Shown: positions 3,265 through 33,788 of the stretch, in pieces
How the letters are laid out: the number at the start of each line of letters is the position of its first letter
Position numbering within the stretch: the first letter of the stretch is position 1
Origin: Thermoproteota archaeon
Lineage (GTDB): Archaea; Korarchaeota; JAOZGF01; JAOZFZ01
Assembly (NCBI GenBank): GCA_027491455.1
Contig: JAOZFL010000117.1
Location: 1 to 49,507 of the forward strand
DNA length: 49,507 bases
Reading direction: 5' to 3'
The notes under the pieces: model-generated
Told to the model about the DNA's origin: nothing
Seen by the model: the letters and a program-made list of their open reading frames with translations, nothing else
Database searches by the model: none
Translations under genes and position numbers: made by a program

Positions 3265-3358
3265 GCCCGAGTGGTGTAGCCCGGCCTAGCATGCGGGCCT
3301 GTCGCTGCATGCTTTCAATAGAGAGCCCGCGACGGGGGTTCAAATCCCCCCTCGGGCG
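3265..3358 (+). tRNA. tRNA-Asp(GTC) with one canonical 37/38 intron (19 nt)
   Basis: Acceptor stem GCCCGAG/CTCGGGC with discriminator G. Anticodon stem CGGGC/GCCCG with loop CTGTCG|intron|A. T-arm GGGGG TTCAAAT CCCCC. The central BHB helix CUGU/AUAG is flanked by 3-nt bulges. Confidence 0.9.
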
Positions 3359-3380: not shown

Positions 3381-3965
3381 CTATGTTGATGCATAAGCTC
3401 TTCTTTCAAGTTCCTCCTTTTTTTTGATCGCTGGGCTATTTGACGGATCGTTATTGGCTGTGGCTATTAATATGTCAGCAAGTATTTCCTCCAGGTTCTT
3501 TACATTGTTAAAAGAGGCGATTTTCACTGATTCAGCTATGTACCTTAAAGCCAAATCTACTCTCCTTAACGGTGCACAGTCCACTGCTTTATGATATATT
3601 ATCCCTCCGTACATTATCGCTGTGACCTCTTCCCTTGGAGCCGCATTTTCTACTGCTCTAACAAGGATTTCAATGGGATTTTTCCCTGTCTTTAGGTGAA
3701 TTATCTCAAACGCTCTCTTAACTATATTTATCGCTCTGTGCTTCTTTCCTGTTCCTCTTCCTGTTCTCATGAGTTTATTTACAAGTCTTTCAACTATTGT
3801 CGTTTCAGCTTTAGCAAATCTTTTAGATGCGTGTCTACCTGAGGTGTGAGGTATATAGACAGGTTTCAAAGATATCACATTTTTTAAGCCTGGGTCTTTG
3901 ATCTCTATTCTATTGAAGCCCCATTTTCCAAACAATTTTATGTCTGTCATTCTTATCACTTTCAT
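3381..3965 (-). CDS. rps7: 30S ribosomal protein S7 (uS7)
   Basis: 194 aa with uS7-like sequence. It lies immediately downstream of rps12 with a 4-nt overlap, which is the conserved order. Confidence 0.95.
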
Positions 3966-5158: not shown

Positions 5159-8100
5159 TCACTTCGCCTCTCCAGTGTATAGTTCAACGGCTCCTGTGCC
5201 AACTGAAACAGGTACACCTATCATTATCCTTTCAACGACCCCTGGCAGAGTGTCCTCTTCCCCTTGGGCAGCTGCATTGGCAAGTGTTTTAACTGTTACT
5301 TCATAGCCGGCTCTAGCAAGTAAGCTGGCTTTTCTTCCGCTTACACCGTATCTCCCTACTTGTTTTAATTCACCTGAAAAGGTCAGGGTGTCAGCTACCA
5401 GAAGTACATGTCTATCATCGATTACTATTCCCTGTTCCTCCAGAATTGATTTTATTTCCTTTATTATAGCTGATCTAGCTGCTTCTATCCCTAAAACCTC
5501 GTATATTTCATAGATGTTGTTTGTTGTTGTTCTCTTTTTATCCACTCCCTCCATTTTTAGCACTACTCTTAAATTCGATCCCTCTGTTTCTATGACGTAC
5601 TCGTCTTCAATCTTTCTAACTATTGTCTTGATTATTCCCTTTACACCAAAAATTGTGGTGTTCATGAGTTTTATAAACCTTTCCTTGAATTTACGATACG
5701 AATCTATCTTTGATTTAGTCTTTAAGTAGTTTTCCCCTATTTCAGTTTCTCCCTTCATTTTCTTCGAAACAGTCTCAGCTATCTTGTCCATGGATATTTT
5801 CTTCTTCTTGATAATTTCCATGTTTAAACTGATGACTACAGTTTTTTCCATTGGGTCAACGTTTATTTTCTCAGCTATGTCCTCCAACTTAAGTGATTTT
5901 ATTTTCTCAGCTATTTCCTTGGCTTTTTCAACATCGTGCTTTATGTCTCCTTCTAAGTAGATGGTCATTGAAGGGGTACTTGGTTCCTTCTTCATATCTA
6001 ACACTTCTTTGAGCCTTGGAAAACCAATTGTTATGTTTTTCTCTGCCACTCCGGCATAATGGAAGGTTCTAAGTGTCATTTGGGTGCTTGGTTCACCTAT
6101 TGACTGGGCAGTAATAACCCCTATTGGTTCAAATGGATGAATCTTGGCTTGGATCCATCTCTTTCTGATCTCGTCTAGAATCTCCTCCATTTTGCCCTTA
6201 TCTATGTTGTGTTCTTTGAATAGATTTATTATTTCCTTTCTAAGCTTCTCTGGAAGATCTCTGAGTTTCTTTTCCACTAATTCTCTTTTCTTGTTGTTAT
6301 TTAATTTTCTCCCTGCGGATTTAGAAATTCTTTCAAGTTTATGTTTAAATTCATCGATGTTAATTATTTCTCCATGATATGTTTTTGTGATATCTGCCCC
6401 ATCATCTCCAAAGGAAAAAGATATTATTTCTCCAGCTGAATTCCTCACGGTTCCGTCATTTTCAACTCTCAGATCCTGAAGAGCAAATATAAGTCTCCTC
6501 TGAAGATACCCACTGTCAGCTGTCCTTATAGCCTTGTCAACCAAGCTTTCCCTTCCAGCCATAGCGTGGAAGAAAAGCTCAGTTGGCATTAAACCATCTT
6601 TGTAGCTGGATTCAACAAATCCTCTGCTTTTAGCCCCTCTGTCTCCTCTTCTAAAGTGAGGAAGCGGTCTATCTATGTAACCATATGAAATTCTTCTACC
6701 CCTTATCGACTGTTGCCCTACACTTCCAGCCATTTGACCAATGTTTATCGAGCTACCCTTAGCCTTTGTCTGCGTCATTGTCACAATGGAGTTCTCAAGG
6801 CTTAAACTCTTTGAAACTTCATTCCCTATCCTTTCTCTTATCTCTGACAATGCTCTTAAAATAAATATTTCAAGGGTTTCCTCCTTAGTTAACCCCGGCT
6901 CTGCCTGGAGTTCTTTCCTGTTAAATTTGTCTATTAAATCTTGGATTTTTCTCTCTCCATCAGCGATTATGGCTTTTATCCTTGTTTTTACTTCTCCAGG
7001 AAGGTCTTCTTCGTCTAAGCCGAGAGTAAACCCCTTCATCGTTATATACCTTAGAAGAAGCCTTGAAAGCTTATTTAAAAAGGTTGCAGCTGTTTTCCCG
7101 CCATATTTATTGGTTATCACGTCAAGCATAGTTAACTTTTTCTCCACTATAGCCCCGAAAGCATTGTTATCTATAACCCCTGTTAAAAGCTCCCCATCCC
7201 TTATAACCACCGTTGAATCCGTCTTAAGATCTATACCCATTTGTTCTTCTGGGGATTGGTAAACTGATGCTTTAAAGTCGATGTCCAGATCTCTTGGAAG
7301 AATTAAGCTGAAAATCTGTTTGCCTGTCCAAAGCTCTACCGGTTTAAGGATGGCTGGCTCAGGTAATTCATCGTAGTCTACAATTGAAGCTAATAGCTCG
7401 CCAGCTTCTTTTCTATTTAAGAAAGTGTCTTTTTTTGTGAGTAAATAGGCAGCTGAGATGTGATCAAGGATCCCCCCTATTAACGCTCCTCCGAAACGTG
7501 GTGAAATAATGTTTTTCTCAACGAGCATAAGTTCTTCAGCTTCAGCTCTTGAATCAACTGTTTGAAGGGCATGTAGGTTCATTTCATCCCCGTCAAAGTC
7601 GGCATTATATGGTGGACAAACCATCAGGTTTAACCTTAATGTTTTGTAGGGCAAAGTTGCGACTCTATGAGCCATCATTGATATCCTATGGAGGGAGGGT
7701 TGTCTATTAAACAGGACAATGTCTCCGTCCATCAAATATCTTTCAACGACATATCCTGGAGTCACAGCCTCAGCGAAAGCCTCTAAGTCGCTGACAAAGC
7801 GTAGATCAACCTTTGTCCCATCAGGCCTCCTAACATATTTTACCCCTGGGTAGTTATTCGGACCTGCCAGCACAAGTTTTTTCATTTCCTCTATGTTTAT
7901 TTCATTTACCCTTACAGGGACAGTTAATACCTTCGCTATTTCGATGGGTACCCCTACCTCGTTTATGTCAAGCAGAGGATCAGGTGATATAACTGTTCTT
8001 GCAGAGAAATCAACTCTTTTACCTGATAAATTAGACCTAAACCTTCCCTCTTTACCTTCAAGTCTCTGAGCTATCCCTTTAATGGGTCTTTTCGTTCTAT

Positions 8101-8962
8101 GCTTAGCTGAAGGGATCCCTGAAAGGTTATTGTCGAAATAAGTGGCTACATGATACTGCAGAAGGTTCCATGCATCGTCAATTATGTGATGAGGGGCGCC
8201 AGCGTCTATGTACTCTCTTAACCTGTTATTCACTCTTATTATATCCACTATTTTATGGGTTAAATCGTCCTCTGCTCTTCCCCCTTTCTCTAGGACAATC
8301 GAAGGCCTAACAGGTAAAGGAGGGACAGGTAAATCTGTCAAGATAGTCCATTCAGGACGACTTACTTCAGGGTTGAAACCTAAAAGATATGCATCTTCAT
8401 CAGGTATATTTTCAAGTCTTTCTCTTATCATAGCAGGGTTAAGAGTTACGGGGCCCTTAGGTGTTATTTCCTTATAAAAATAAGGAGGAATAAACTTAAC
8501 CTTATATTGCTGAGCTCCACAGTGTGGACATTTCAATTTATTCATAGTCTTACTCTTTATTTCCTTCAATAATTTCTTTCTTCTCTCTGGCGAAGAGGTT
8601 AATCTCAACTTCTCCAAGTAATTTTCCTTTTCATTTTCGCTTAACATTATCTTAGAGCATTTCCTGCAAATAGTTTTCAAGGTATTACTTATTTTCCTGG
8701 CGAATAAAACATTTATGACTGGTTTAGCTAATTCTATATAGCCAAAATGGCCTGGACATGCATCTATACTCCCACCACATGTTCTACAGAGGTAGTTTGG
8801 CTCTAGGACCCCAAGTCTAGGGTCCATAGCTCCTCCCTCAATTGGTAAACCGTCAGCGTCATATGTCTGGGGCAGGACGATTTTGGCGACAGCCATTTTT
8901 CTGATTTCATTCGGGCTTAAAAGGCTAAGCTTCAAGGCTCTGATGGTTTCTTCTCTAATCAA
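5159..8962 (-). CDS. rpoA: DNA-directed RNA polymerase subunit A, with A' and A'' fused in one 1267 aa ORF
   Basis: The N-terminal zinc motifs (CRTCGG...CPGHFG) and the NADFDGDEMN catalytic motif are A'-type. The C-terminal third (...AQSIGEPSTQMTLRTFHYAGV...) is A''-type. The ORF is continuous across the usual split point, around 6245-6300. Confidence 0.95.
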   Translation of the reverse strand: MIREETIRALKLSLLSPNEIRKMAVAKIVLPQTYDADGLPIEGGAMDPRLGVLEPNYLCRTCGGSIDACPGHFGYIELAKPVINVLFARKISNTLKTICRKCSKIMLSENEKENYLEKLRLTSSPERRKKLLKEIKSKTMNKLKCPHCGAQQYKVKFIPPYFYKEITPKGPVTLNPAMIRERLENIPDEDAYLLGFNPEVSRPEWTILTDLPVPPLPVRPSIVLEKGGRAEDDLTHKIVDIIRVNNRLREYIDAGAPHHIIDDAWNLLQYHVATYFDNNLSGIPSAKHRTKRPIKGIAQRLEGKEGRFRSNLSGKRVDFSARTVISPDPLLDINEVGVPIEIAKVLTVPVRVNEINIEEMKKLVLAGPNNYPGVKYVRRPDGTKVDLRFVSDLEAFAEAVTPGYVVERYLMDGDIVLFNRQPSLHRISMMAHRVATLPYKTLRLNLMVCPPYNADFDGDEMNLHALQTVDSRAEAEELMLVEKNIISPRFGGALIGGILDHISAAYLLTKKDTFLNRKEAGELLASIVDYDELPEPAILKPVELWTGKQIFSLILPRDLDIDFKASVYQSPEEQMGIDLKTDSTVVIRDGELLTGVIDNNAFGAIVEKKLTMLDVITNKYGGKTAATFLNKLSRLLLRYITMKGFTLGLDEEDLPGEVKTRIKAIIADGERKIQDLIDKFNRKELQAEPGLTKEETLEIFILRALSEIRERIGNEVSKSLSLENSIVTMTQTKAKGSSINIGQMAGSVGQQSIRGRRISYGYIDRPLPHFRRGDRGAKSRGFVESSYKDGLMPTELFFHAMAGRESLVDKAIRTADSGYLQRRLIFALQDLRVENDGTVRNSAGEIISFSFGDDGADITKTYHGEIINIDEFKHKLERISKSAGRKLNNNKKRELVEKKLRDLPEKLRKEIINLFKEHNIDKGKMEEILDEIRKRWIQAKIHPFEPIGVITAQSIGEPSTQMTLRTFHYAGVAEKNITIGFPRLKEVLDMKKEPSTPSMTIYLEGDIKHDVEKAKEIAEKIKSLKLEDIAEKINVDPMEKTVVISLNMEIIKKKKISMDKIAETVSKKMKGETEIGENYLKTKSKIDSYRKFKERFIKLMNTTIFGVKGIIKTIVRKIEDEYVIETEGSNLRVVLKMEGVDKKRTTTNNIYEIYEVLGIEAARSAIIKEIKSILEEQGIVIDDRHVLLVADTLTFSGELKQVGRYGVSGRKASLLARAGYEVTVKTLANAAAQGEEDTLPGVVERIMIGVPVSVGTGAVELYTGEAK

Positions 8963-12590: not shown

Positions 12591-12695
12591 TGGGCCCGGC
12601 GGGACTCCCAGGGAAATCCTTTGAACCCGCGGCATCCGGGTTTCTCCTACAAAGCATAAAAGCCCGGCGCTCTAACCTTGCTGAGCTACGGGCCC
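12591..12695 (-). tRNA. tRNA-Lys(TTT) with two introns (about 15 nt at 37/38 and about 15 nt in the T-loop)
   Basis: Reverse complement: GGGCCCG TA GCTC AGCAAGGTTA GAGC G CCGGG CTTTTA|tgctttgtaggagaa|A CCCGG ATGCC GCGGG TTCAAA|ggatttccctgggag|T CCCGC CGGGCCC A. The central BHB helix CUUU/GGAG is present for the anticodon-loop intron. Confidence 0.85.
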
Positions 12696-16285: not shown

Positions 16286-16561
16286 TTGTCAAGGATAAGG
16301 GAGGGCCGGGTTTCAAAAATAAAAATAGGCCCCCCTTATCTCACTAAATACGAGAAAGCAGCTGTAATTGCTGCAAGGGCTCTTCAAATAGAGGTTGGGG
16401 CTCCTGTTTTAATTAGACTTCCACCAGGCCTTATAGACCCTGTTAAAATTGCAAGATTAGAACTTGAAAAAAAGGCTCTGCCTCTCATAATAAGAAGAAC
16501 TATCAGAGGAAGCTTGAATTACCAAGATATACCTCTTGAATGGCTTGAAATAATAAATTAA
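16286..16561 (+). CDS. rpoK: DNA-directed RNA polymerase subunit K (Rpb6/omega homologue)
   Basis: 91 aa. LTKYEKAAVIAARALQIEVGAPVLI is the conserved RpoK core. TTG start. Confidence 0.85.
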   Translation: MSRIREGRVSKIKIGPPYLTKYEKAAVIAARALQIEVGAPVLIRLPPGLIDPVKIARLELEKKALPLIIRRTIRGSLNYQDIPLEWLEIIN

Positions 16562-20667: not shown

Positions 20668-20854
20668 ACATATCACATGTTTAGGTGGAATTAGAGAAAA
20701 ACCTAACGTTCAGAGAGGAAAGTGTTAAAAGTGTTAAAAAATTAATTGAAGCACTTTTAGAAGAAAATTTTTAAATCAGGAGATAATACTGAATGGTAAG
20801 GAGACATAGTTTCCCCTGTATGTCCCCAGCTACCCGTAAGTTCTCAGTCTTAAA

Positions 20855-20910
20855 GCGATGATGTAACTACGCAGAGCATAATTAGATGATGAGGACTTGG
20901 TGGCTGAGTG
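20855..20910 (+). ncRNA. Candidate C/D box sRNA
   Basis: C box ATGATGT (20858-20864), 12-nt spacer, degenerate D' CATA (20877-20880), 5-nt loop, perfect C' ATGATGA (20886-20892), 11-nt spacer, D box CTGA (20904-20907). The box spacing matches archaeal C/D sRNAs. The D' box is poor and there is no clear terminal stem. Confidence 0.3.
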
Positions 20911-21750: not shown

Positions 21751-22161
21751 TTGGGTGAAAGGAACATAGTTTTTGCAAGTGCGAAGAGAAAGACTGCCGT
21801 TGCAGCTGTCACAGTAAGGGAAGGCAAGGGAAGGATAAAAATAAATAATGTCCCGCTTGGGCTTTGGCAACCTGAACTTGCTAAATGGAAGATTATGGAA
21901 CCCCTCTTACTTGCAGGAGAGGATATCTCACAAAAAGTGGACATAGATGCAAAGGTGAAGGGAGGCGGGTTTATGAGTCAAGCTGAAGCTGTTCAAACAG
22001 CTATTTCAAGGGCCCTCTATGAGTGGACTAAAAATGAAGACTTAAAGAGAAGATTTATTGAATATAATAGACACATGCTTGTAGGTGATCCTAGACAGAA
22101 AGAACCCAAGAAGTTCGGTGGTAGGGGGGCTAGAGCAAGGTTTCAGAAATCAAAGAGGTGA
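21751..22161 (+). CDS. rps9: 30S ribosomal protein S9 (uS9)
   Basis: 136 aa with SAKRKTAVAAVTV...GGGFMSQAEAV...[24 protein letters not shown], a typical uS9 C-terminus. Confidence 0.9.
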   Translation: MGERNIVFASAKRKTAVAAVTVREGKGRIKINNVPLGLWQPELAKWKIMEPLLLAGEDISQKVDIDAKVKGGGFMSQAEAVQTAISRALYEWTKNEDLKRRFIEYNRHMLVGDPRQKEPKKFGGRGARARFQKSKR

Positions 22162-22395
22162 AGAAAACGATAATACCCGTAAAGCCGTTTTAAACGGCGC
22201 GGAGGGTGTTTCACCTGTGGTAAACTCATAGGACACTTATGGGATAAATATTTAAAGCTTTTAAAGAACGGTAAAAGCCGCAAAGAAGCATTAGATGAGC
22301 TTGGGCTTAAAAGATACTGCTGCAGAAGAATGTTACTTTCATACGTAGATCTCACTGATGAAATACTTGCATATATAGAGGGAAAAGAAGAATAA
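22158..22395 (+). CDS. rpoN: DNA-directed RNA polymerase subunit N (Rpb10 homologue), interrupted by a 22-nt BHB intron. Exon 1 is 22158-22182 and exon 2 is 22205-22395.
   Basis: The GTG start overlaps the rps9 TGA (GTGA). Exon 1 encodes MKKTIIPV plus the first base of an Arg codon. Exon 2, in a different frame, encodes (R)[62 protein letters not shown]. The unspliced frame hits a TAA at 22191. The spliced product is 71 aa with the CxxC...CC zinc ligands intact. Confidence 0.85.
22183..22204 (+). other. 22-nt bulge-helix-bulge (hBHBh') intron within the rpoN mRNA
   Basis: Outer helix AAUAC (22172-22176) pairs with GUGUU (22206-22210). Central 4-bp helix CCGU (22177-22180) pairs with GCGG (22199-22202). 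The 3-nt bulges are AA|A (22181-22183) and AG|G (22203-22205). Inner helix GCCGUUU (22184-22190) pairs with AAACGGC (22192-22198). Cleavage after the second bulge nucleotide joins GTA-A|GG-TGT, giving V-R-C. Confidence 0.8.
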
Positions 22396-22761
22396 TGTAG
22401 CATCTAAGCGGTGACAATATTTGAAAAATGAAAGATTAATTGTTTCCTTTTCCAGGAAATACTTTCACTTCTAACAGAAATAAGATTTGTTTTTTTACAT
22501 GTAAGGCTCTGATGCTTAGAGCCTCTGCAAAGGAATATCCATCAGCTGATGATAACAGCTTGCAATGAAAGGTGTTATCGTTCTATGAGTCCCTTTAACT
22601 AATTAACTTTTGTCAAGTTACATGTAGAGAAAGTTGCATGTTAATTTTATCTCCATGTCAAGCAGATATAGCTTTATAAACTATAATGCCTTCAAATTTC
22701 TTATAGGAAGAATAAAACCTAGAATATCCACCTAATATTTAACCTAGTAGGTGAAGAATGT

Positions 22762-25945: not shown

Positions 25946-26089
25946 GCGACCGTGGTCTAGTCAGAAGGTTTTAAGTGAATTCGCTTAGACATGATAAGGT
26001 TAGGACCCAAGCCCCCCATGCATCTGATGAGCTGCTTCGTCTAGATGCTGAGAGAGCTTGGAGCGCGGGTTCAAATCCCGCCGGTCGCA
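25946..26089 (+). tRNA. tRNA-Gly(CCC) with two introns (about 34 nt in the D-loop and 36 nt at 37/38)
   Basis: GCGACCG TG GTCT AGTC[...intron...]GGTTA GGAC C CAAGC CCCCCA|36-nt intron|A GCTTG GAGC GCGGG TTCAAAT CCCGC CGGTCGC A. The D-arm is homologous to the other tRNA-Gly once the insert is removed. The intron inner helix is GCAUC/GAUGC. Confidence 0.75.
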
Positions 26090-26113
26090 TTCTTCTTCTT
26101 TTACTCATTTGCG

Positions 26114-26800
26114 GTGTTTATTTTGTTGTTTTTTATTTTAGCGGAATCTTCACTGGAGCTGGTTCCCAAGGAAATTCGGAAACACTCTCAGATTAGAAAG
26201 GCTTGTGTTAAAAAGGGCATTAAACCTGAAAAGGAGATTCTGGATGCTTCTTACCATTACAATGCCATCAAAGAGCTTTGTTTTGCTGAAAAAAGAGGTA
26301 GACCCGATATCGTCCATGTTTGTCTGCTTTTTTTACAGGACAGCTTAGTTAACAGAGAAGGAAAACTAAGAGTTTTTATTCACACATTGAACAATAGGGT
26401 CATACATGTCAAGCCAGATGTCAGGATACCTAAGCATTTTGACAGGTTCATTGGTTTGATGAGACAATTACTCAGGGTAGGGAGGGTTCCCTTGAAAGGT
26501 GAACCATTATTATTCGTTGAGGAGAAAAGCATTAAAGATCTGATCAGAGATTTAAAGCCTGAAGCAACTATTGGATTCTCGACGGAGGGCCGGGTAATAA
26601 CTGATTTAATCAGCTTTTTTAAAGGTTTTGGCGCTAATAAGGACTTAGCTGCAGTTGTGGGCGGGTTTCCACATGGAGAATTTTCCCCTGAAACCGTCGA
26701 AGTTTTCGATGACACCATCAGCGTAAGCCGCTATTCCCTTAATGCTTGGACTGTTGCTTCAATAATTCTAAACTGTTACTATTACGCTTTAATTGTTTGA
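26114..26800 (+). CDS. nep1: Ribosomal RNA small subunit methyltransferase Nep1 (EMG1 family)
   Basis: ILAESSLELVPKEI...ILDASYHYNAI...RPDIVHVCLL are Nep1 motifs. The ORF-track start at 26045 lies inside the tRNA-Gly gene. The likely start is the GTG at 26114 or a TTG at 26123 or 26126. Confidence 0.8.
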   Translation: MFILLFFILAESSLELVPKEIRKHSQIRKACVKKGIKPEKEILDASYHYNAIKELCFAEKRGRPDIVHVCLLFLQDSLVNREGKLRVFIHTLNNRVIHVKPDVRIPKHFDRFIGLMRQLLRVGRVPLKGEPLLFVEEKSIKDLIRDLKPEATIGFSTEGRVITDLISFFKGFGANKDLAAVVGGFPHGEFSPETVEVFDDTISVSRYSLNAWTVASIILNCYYYALIV

Positions 26801-33332: not shown

Positions 33333-33788
33333 TTGGTAGCAAAAAACAATTTTTACCTAGTAAGGGTAACAAAGTCCCAAGAAATAACAGTTGCCTTAAT
33401 ACTAGCCAACAAAGCTGAGAAAATAGCAGATCAAGTTAAATCTATACTTGTCCTGGATGAAATCCCAGGGTACGTTGTGGTTGAAGCTGAAAACATGGGT
33501 GCAATTGATTCATTAATAGTTGGTACTCCACATGTGAGAGGAAGGGTTCAATCAATGCTTTCATTTGAAGAGATTAGCCGATTCCTGAAAAGAAAGTCTT
33601 ACATTGAAGAATTGAATATTGGAGATGTCGTTAAACTTACAAGGGGTCCCTTTGAAGGAGAAAAGGCCAGAGTCGCCTCTATAAATAAAAGTAGGGATGA
33701 AGTAACAGTTGAACTTTTCGAGTCTCTTGTCCCAGTGGCTATAACGGTTCCAGGGGACTCGGTTAAAAAGGAAAAACCAAAGGAATGA
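33333..33788 (+). CDS. spt5: Transcription elongation factor Spt5 (archaeal NusG)
   Basis: 151 aa with an NGN domain (FYLVRVTKSQE..., YVVVEAEN) and a KOW motif (GDVVKLTRGPFEGEKARV). Confidence 0.9.
   Translation: MVAKNNFYLVRVTKSQEITVALILANKAEKIADQVKSILVLDEIPGYVVVEAENMGAIDSLIVGTPHVRGRVQSMLSFEEISRFLKRKSYIEELNIGDVVKLTRGPFEGEKARVASINKSRDEVTVELFESLVPVAITVPGDSVKKEKPKE

Follow-up and report, generated by a model that had tools for sequence, protein, structure and literature searches.

Introduction

In archaea, the bulge-helix-bulge (BHB) intron confirmed within the coding sequence of an mRNA is that of cbf5, described from Desulfurococcales and Sulfolobales (Watanabe 2002; Yoshinari 2006; Yokobori 2009; PMC2738675). 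Its motifs are often relaxed, a property linked to a hetero-oligomeric tRNA-splicing endonuclease, EndA (PMC2738675). A 46-nt BHB intron in the 5' untranslated region (UTR) of HVO_1309 from Haloferax volcanii was established by circRNA-seq and in vitro cleavage (Schwarz 2020, PMC7714728), and archaeal tRNA introns generally measure 11-175 nt (PMC2738675). Herein, we analyzed a stretch of 49,507 nt from an uncultured Thermoproteota archaeon (GenBank assembly GCA_027491455.1, contig JAOZFL010000117.1; the whole stretch is hereafter called the window), in which rpoN, encoding the small and essential subunit N of RNA polymerase (RpoN/Rpo10/Rpb10), is interrupted by 22 nt. On the evidence of the sequences compared here, these 22 nt (22183-22204) are very probably a functional BHB intron in the rpoN coding sequence. 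No earlier report of an intron in rpoN or Rpb10 was found in the literature, and rpoN is a new host gene, in a new lineage, for the mechanism known from cbf5 and tRNA introns. A preliminary description of the locus had regarded archaeal mRNA introns as established essentially only for cbf5; this is correct for coding sequences and overlooks the 5' UTR intron of HVO_1309.

The rpoN case resembles that of cbf5 in several respects: a short BHB intron lies in an archaeal coding sequence, its removal restores the frame, and its occurrence is restricted to a clade. The cbf5 intron, too, was at first taken for a frameshift or missed in annotation. However, the host of the one is a pseudouridine synthase and that of the other an RNA polymerase subunit, the rpoN carriers form a different, Thermoproteota-affiliated lineage, and the often relaxed cbf5 motifs contrast with a strict hBHBh' motif (outer helix, central helix between two bulges, inner helix) in rpoN. 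Splicing of cbf5 has been shown experimentally, whereas that of rpoN is predicted from sequence. Since its host gene is rpoN, the intron belongs to the same class of mechanism as the cbf5 intron but to another family.

HVO_1309 likewise carries an EndA substrate in an mRNA, as is predicted for rpoN, but at a UTR site, so its reading frame is independent of the intron. With archaeal tRNA introns, the rpoN intron shares an identical motif geometry, cut positions, size range and presumably the enzymes; it differs in having an mRNA host, no tRNA body for recognition, and exon strands of the helices that are constrained by codons (CCC GUA / GG UGU U). In eukaryotes, HAC1 and XBP1 mRNAs undergo IRE1-dependent splicing, and RtcB joins the exons in metazoa. 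That system, as predicted for rpoN, is spliceosome-independent, removes a very short mRNA intron by means of a protein endonuclease and a tRNA ligase, and sets the frame by splicing; it decides whether a functional protein is produced, as we propose for rpoN. Unlike rpoN, it employs the IRE1 endonuclease, recognizes a twin stem-loop and is regulated by stress, a regulation not indicated for rpoN.

In silico removal of 22 nt restores a complete RpoN

The stop codon of rps9 is overlapped by the GTG start of rpoN at 22158 (GTGA), and the frame opened there (frame 0) runs into TAA 22191-22193. The remainder of RpoN (...RYCCRRMLL...EE*) lies in the +1 frame, from 22207 to TAA 22393-22395. This second frame, which encodes CFTCGK, is closed on its 5' side by TAA 22180-22182; it contains no ATG, GTG or TTG before the first zinc-binding Cys, and its first in-frame start is ATG 22330, 3' of all four Cys. 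Because of the stop at 22191 in the one frame, and the stop at 22180 together with the lack of an early start in the other, neither frame alone makes RpoN. When 22183-22204 were removed in silico, an open reading frame (ORF) of 71 aa (MKKTIIPVRCFTCGK...EE*) was obtained, corresponding to a host gene of 216 nt. The frames, stops and insert were recomputed, and all coordinates and sequences of the split gene given in the preliminary description were reproduced.

The spliced product matched the Pfam family RNA_pol_N (PF01194; gathering cut-off, 26.9 bits) with 108.3 bits over profile positions 1-58 of 58. It carries the zinc-binding CxxC...CC signature as C-F-T-C and R-Y-C-C-R-R, and solved Rpb10/RpoN chains align with it collinearly, starting at their residue 2 (E-values down to 1e-24), among them 5x4z_J, which reads IIPVRCFSCGK in the alignment. 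The N-terminus KKTIIPVRCF is also present in an uninterrupted homologue (L023). The full profile match and the collinearity bear out the claim that splicing restores IIPVRCFTCGK with no residue gained or lost.

The interrupted gene lies in a cluster of ribosomal and RNA polymerase genes, L18e-L13-S9-rpoN...S2, with rpoN directly 3' of rps9. The order L18e-L13-S9-rpoN is known from described archaeal genomes. No second copy of rpoN was found within the 49.5-kb window. The 367-nt spacer between rpoN and rps2 (22396-22761) contains no ORF and no Rfam hit, and rpoK does not lie there; the same interval is only about 18 nt long in the second lineage described below.

A programmed +1 frameshift, or transcriptional slippage in the TTTT/AAA run, would also connect the two frames in the window lineage and would lengthen RpoN by 7 residues. 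From 22183 on, no stop codon of the exon-2 frame falls within the insert, a shift at UUU-UAA is formally possible, and the read-through product would still match RNA_pol_N with 92.5 bits. However, this match covers positions 6-58 only: the product loses the first five profile positions and the invariant Arg. In all 130 uninterrupted rpoN loci of our comparison, Arg stands directly before Cys; the residues ahead of it read xxP[I/V/L] in 129 loci, while L127 has IIPP.

A strict BHB motif spans the insert

Along each strand of the predicted structure, the order is helix, 4-bp helix, 3-nt bulge and helix, which gives the two-fold symmetric hBHBh' arrangement (Table 1). As in the strict form of the motif, exactly 4 central bp lie between two 3-nt bulges on opposite strands. 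The flanking helices, for which the strict form asks at least 2 bp, comprise 5 and 6 bp in the window and 3 and 5 bp in the second lineage. The outer helix of 5 bp, the central helix of 4 bp and the bulges were as first described; the inner helix, put at 7 bp in that description, was found to have 6 bp with a 3-nt loop, as a seventh pair would leave a loop of 1 nt. The intron has a G+C content of 59%, compared with 39% in the window, and no second copy of it was found in the window at up to 3 mismatches.

A group I or group II self-splicing intron was considered and rejected. The ribozyme core of such introns comprises hundreds of nucleotides; the insert has 22, and no Rfam intron family was matched in the window at E-values up to 1.

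tRNA introns of the window validate the cut rule

Introns were found in all four tRNA genes of the window, with two each in three of them. They are 15 to about 43 nt long and occupy sites 37/38, the D-loop and 59/60. From these numbers it follows that the organism depends heavily on BHB splicing. The junctions of two introns, those at 37/38 of tRNA-Asp and at 59/60 of tRNA-Tyr, are fixed independently by tRNA structure and could be used for calibration. The rule put forward in the preliminary description, a cut after bulge nucleotide 2, gave the correct mature sequence for both (a slash marks the junction here and below): it leaves ...C36 G37 / A38 in tRNA-Asp(GUC) (3265-3358), and in tRNA-Tyr(GUA) it removes 12953-12925, restoring the canonical T-loop UUCAAAU. 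Applied to rpoN, the rule joins GUA-A/GG-UGU and yields the Arg codon of the conserved IIPV-R-CF.

The presence of EndA and of the ligase RtcB in the genome is implied by the four intron-containing tRNA genes. Judging from the described EndA types (PMC5829648), the organism probably has an EndA of broad specificity.

The tRNA-Tyr gene (13054-12911) was detected by neither ARAGORN nor Rfam. The Rfam match of tRNA-Lys ends at 12622 with the T-arm deleted because of the second intron of this gene. An ORF call for an EMG1/Nep1 methyltransferase (26045-26800) overlaps the 3' end of the tRNA gene at 25946-26089; therefore, the true start of EMG1/Nep1 is probably further downstream.

The insert recurs in a second lineage with compensatory changes

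When one genome per archaeal species was scanned with S9, rpoN lay close to rps9 in 52 loci, nearly all directly downstream. A metagenome scan with an alignment of RpoN exon 2 gave, among the matches listed, at least 80 further rpoN loci (common pattern RCFTCGKL), which were distant and uninterrupted. Among the matches listed, 130 of 132 rpoN loci, L003 included, were tallied as uninterrupted. The sole interrupted locus was L003 (JAOZFT010000004.1, "Thermoproteota archaeon"), whose S9 is 70% identical to that of the window; L127 had been flagged only for its IIPPRCF, and rpoN is contiguous there too. Four further contigs, L168-L171, were found through protein-cluster and contig look-ups, and exact look-ups of the window S9 returned no record.

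The carriers now comprise six independent assemblies in two lineages. The window and L168 (GCA_027492105.1) represent the first, with an identical intron and one synonymous difference nearby; L003 and three further assemblies (L169, L170 and L171) represent the second. In all six, a 22-nt insert occupies the same codon position and the S9-rpoN synteny is kept. The comparison with related rpoN loci that the preliminary description had called for thus shows that a second lineage carries the insert at the identical site, with compensatory substitutions, and that 130 loci lack it. In all five carrier assemblies for which gene calls were seen, the gene callers left the rps9-rps2 interval empty, and no called protein matching the spliced gene was found in a set of 5.8 billion proteins.

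The intron of the second lineage (AGTCATGTTGAATGACGCGGAA) is identical to that of the window at 15 of 22 positions, and four of the seven differences form two compensatory pairs. These are two of the five shared inner-helix pairs, changed from C-G to U-A and from G-C to A-U. The second lineage has the same central helix and 5' bulge as the window, with AAG as its 3' bulge and GUCAU/AUGAC as its inner helix; of the outer helix, both lineages retain the three pairs next to the bulge. Standard pairs occupied 97.9% of pair cells, compared with 15-52% when the 3' partners were slid by 1-3 columns. The central helix was invariant in five of the six assemblies. Between the lineages, the exons showed saturated synonymous divergence (pS 0.78) at a nonsynonymous divergence (pN) of 0.16, indicating that rpoN is under purifying selection and that the intron is old. 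With 15 of 22 positions identical, the intron is far better conserved than neutral sites.

These data weigh heavily against the frameshift or slippage explanation. In L003, frame 0 meets a TGA at 3449-51 and the exon-2 frame has a TGA at 3453-55; since the two frames share no open stretch, no single shift connects them in this lineage, and L169-L171 contradict the explanation likewise. A frameshift would also leave the conserved 3-4-3 geometry of bulges and central helix and the compensatory changes unexplained. We consider it most improbable.

The same comparison was used to judge whether the insert is an assembly or sequencing artefact, or whether this rpoN is a decaying pseudogene covered by another copy. 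The carriers are metagenome-assembled genomes and the search for a second copy covered the window only, both of which leave some room for this idea. It is opposed by an insert of the same length and place but different sequence across two lineages and six assemblies, by the purifying selection on the exons, by an intron structure maintained through compensatory change, and by the canonical S9-rpoN synteny, with no second copy in the window. An artefact or pseudogene is accordingly given very little weight.

Translational bypassing of the 22 nt is a further way to obtain RpoN from an unspliced mRNA. Ribosome hopping is exemplified by gene 60 of phage T4, and we know of no precedent in archaea. 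The rpoN locus does offer a hairpin just 3' of the putative take-off region and a stop codon inside the gap. Yet there are no matched codons: for translation to resume at TGT, the landing codon would be GGG in the window or AGG in L003, against GUA or AAG at take-off. Moreover, the Arg codon exists only after the RNA has been joined, and the organism uses BHB splicing on its tRNAs. Hopping thus appears extremely unlikely.

The closest S9 proteins outside the carriers' own clade, at 69% identity, were found on Baldrarchaeia contigs (L161-L167), some of which are labelled Asgard (Baldrarchaeia, Odinarchaeota) at their source. No rpoN follows rps9 in L161-L167; rps9 is followed there by an oppositely oriented gene for a class II aminoacyl-tRNA synthetase (Pfam tRNA-synt_2 plus an anticodon-binding domain).

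Proposed splicing of the rpoN mRNA

From the motif and the cut rule, we infer that the rpoN mRNA is spliced and that EndA and RtcB are the enzymes. The L18e-L13-S9-rpoN transcript would fold locally into the hBHBh' motif, and EndA would cut after the second nucleotide of each 3-nt bulge, at 22182/22183 and 22204/22205. By analogy with tRNA splicing, the cut ends would be a 2',3'-cyclic phosphate and a 5'-OH, to be joined by an RtcB-type ligase. The predicted RNA junction is ...CCCGUAA/GGUGUUUC..., which would appear in reads as ...AUACCCGUAA/GGUGUUUCACC... Joining would create the A/GG (Arg) codon and the frame ...IIPV-R-CFTCGK..., from which a normal 71-aa RpoN could be translated. The released 22-nt intron would probably be a small RNA in linear or circular form.

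EndA might instead cut the BHB without religation, the motif serving to split rps9 from the RNA downstream, as a site of processing or decay. There is a parallel in yeast, where the homologous tRNA-splicing endonuclease initiates mRNA decay with no ligation (reviewed in PMC10485636). Under cutting alone, however, the cell would have no way to make RpoN, and exon 2, although it lacks a start codon, is strongly conserved. This variant therefore seems hardly credible.

Several observations weigh against a functional intron. First, the minimum-energy fold computed with ViennaRNA for the window lineage is a 5x5 internal loop at -18.9 kcal/mol, compared with -13.1 kcal/mol for the BHB conformer. For the second lineage, the central and inner helices are part of the optimum fold, as are the two 3-nt unpaired stretches, with 4 nt left unpaired opposite the 3' one. 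Second, no more than 14 nt separate the start codon from the 5' strand of the motif, and an initiating ribosome would compete with folding. Third, the insert is known from only two lineages and the covariation rests on two pairs; with two lineages, the covariation test is weak. The five other carriers all come from one accession series (accessions beginning with JAOZF or JAOZG). Fourth, in L171 (GCA_027492235.1, about position 3474) GCGG is changed to GCTG, which places a C-U mismatch in the 4-bp central helix; it may reflect polymorphism, sequencing error or a relaxed BHB that is tolerated. Fifth, neither endA nor rtcB was found in the 49.5-kb window. Finally, the motif by itself is no proof. 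Strict BHB motifs whose two flanking helices each reach 5 bp or more, with introns no longer than 120 nt, numbered 8 (plus strand) and 10 (minus strand) in the window, and Markov-random sequence contained 6 to 11 per strand. In 49.5 kb, chance alone would produce about 8 such motifs on each strand.

What goes beyond chance is that the cut sites coincide with the sole start-end pair that restores the conserved protein, and that the second lineage shows this arrangement again, in a different sequence. The chance that cut sites fall on the single protein-restoring start-end pair is about 2e-6 per pair (18 motifs over all possible pairs).

Other features of the window

Apart from rpoN, the window carries the RNA polymerase genes rpoH-rpoB-rpoA and rpoK, all uninterrupted. 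The single unsplit rpoA gene sits in an rpoH-rpoB-rpoA-L30e-NusA-S12-S7 cluster; in most archaea, rpoA is typically split as an A'/A'' pair. A sub-threshold match to a Pyrococcus C/D-box sRNA family (28.5 bits; gathering cut-off, 45) was noted in the gap between FBPase and L18e, at 20854-20910 on the plus strand.

Strict BHB-like motifs also occur in, or antisense to, the intact genes of L1 (34614-34645, plus strand), Spt5 (33504-33529, plus strand) and AlaRS (36839-36818, minus strand). They were rejected as introns: each gene matches its Pfam profile collinearly, and none of the lengths (32, 26 and 22 nt) is divisible by 3. Most likely, these motifs are due to chance. When relaxed BHB candidates of the window were spliced in silico and scored for the merging of ORFs, hundreds of spurious merges resulted, and rpoN was missed under the length filter used.

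Table 1. Coordinates of the rpoN locus, its predicted BHB motif and further genes of the window
Feature	Position	Strand	Description
rps9 (ribosomal protein S9)	21751-22161	+	From the ORF list; homologues carry Pfam PF00380; directly upstream of rpoN
rpoN exon 1	22158-22182	+	25 nt: GTG start, codons of MKKTIIPV and first base (A) of the Arg codon
BHB intron (predicted)	22183-22204	+	22 nt, AGCCGTTTTAAACGGCGCGGAG
rpoN exon 2	22205-22395	+	GG of the Arg codon, CFTCGK...RYCCRR...EE, TAA stop
Outer helix h	22172-22176 / 22206-22210	+	AAUAC / GUGUU, 5 bp including one U-G; 3' strand in Cys-Phe codons
Central helix H	22177-22180 / 22199-22202	+	CCGU (Pro-Val codons) / GCGG (intronic), 4 bp including one U-G
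5' bulge	22181-22183	+	AAA; predicted cut 22182/22183; invariant among carriers
3' bulge	22203-22205	+	AGG; predicted cut 22204/22205; AAG in the second lineage (L003)
Inner hairpin h'	22184-22198	+	GCCGUU (22184-22189) / AACGGC (22193-22198), 6 bp, loop UUA
tRNA-Tyr(GUA)	13054-12911	-	About 144 nt; intron of about 43 nt at 37/38 and 29-nt T-loop intron at 59/60 (12953-12925), strict BHB
tRNA-Lys(UUU)	12695-12591	-	15-nt intron at 37/38 and 15-nt T-loop intron at 59/60
tRNA gene	25946-26089	+	Two inserts, 41 and 42 nt, in the D-loop and the anticodon loop
rpoA	5159-8962	-	Single unsplit ORF of 1267 aa, Rpb1 domains 1-5
rpoK	16286-16561

Implications

RpoN is part of the assembly platform of RNA polymerase. 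If its mRNA is spliced as predicted, rpoN would be the second archaeal coding sequence known, after cbf5, to need the tRNA-splicing machinery, and the first such case in the core transcription apparatus; EndA and RtcB would then be needed for making RNA polymerase. With the BHB 14 nt from a start codon that is translationally coupled to rps9, EndA and RtcB would have to act before ribosomes occupy the site, and the intron might even act as a control point that ties RpoN output to the tRNA-splicing capacity of the cell, where unspliced mRNA would yield only an 11-aa peptide; we regard such a regulatory role as rather doubtful. With its strict BHB, an intron of 22 nt and a gene of 216 nt, the locus is well suited to studying the entry and persistence of protein-spliced introns in mRNAs and the competition between splicing and coupled translation.

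Because gene callers miss rpoN in all carriers checked, these genomes are counted as lacking a universal marker gene. Other introns of this kind may be hidden by the same weakness of gene calling. A more doubtful extension is that this lineage, with tRNA genes saturated by introns, carries many more mRNA BHB introns that gene callers have silently missed.

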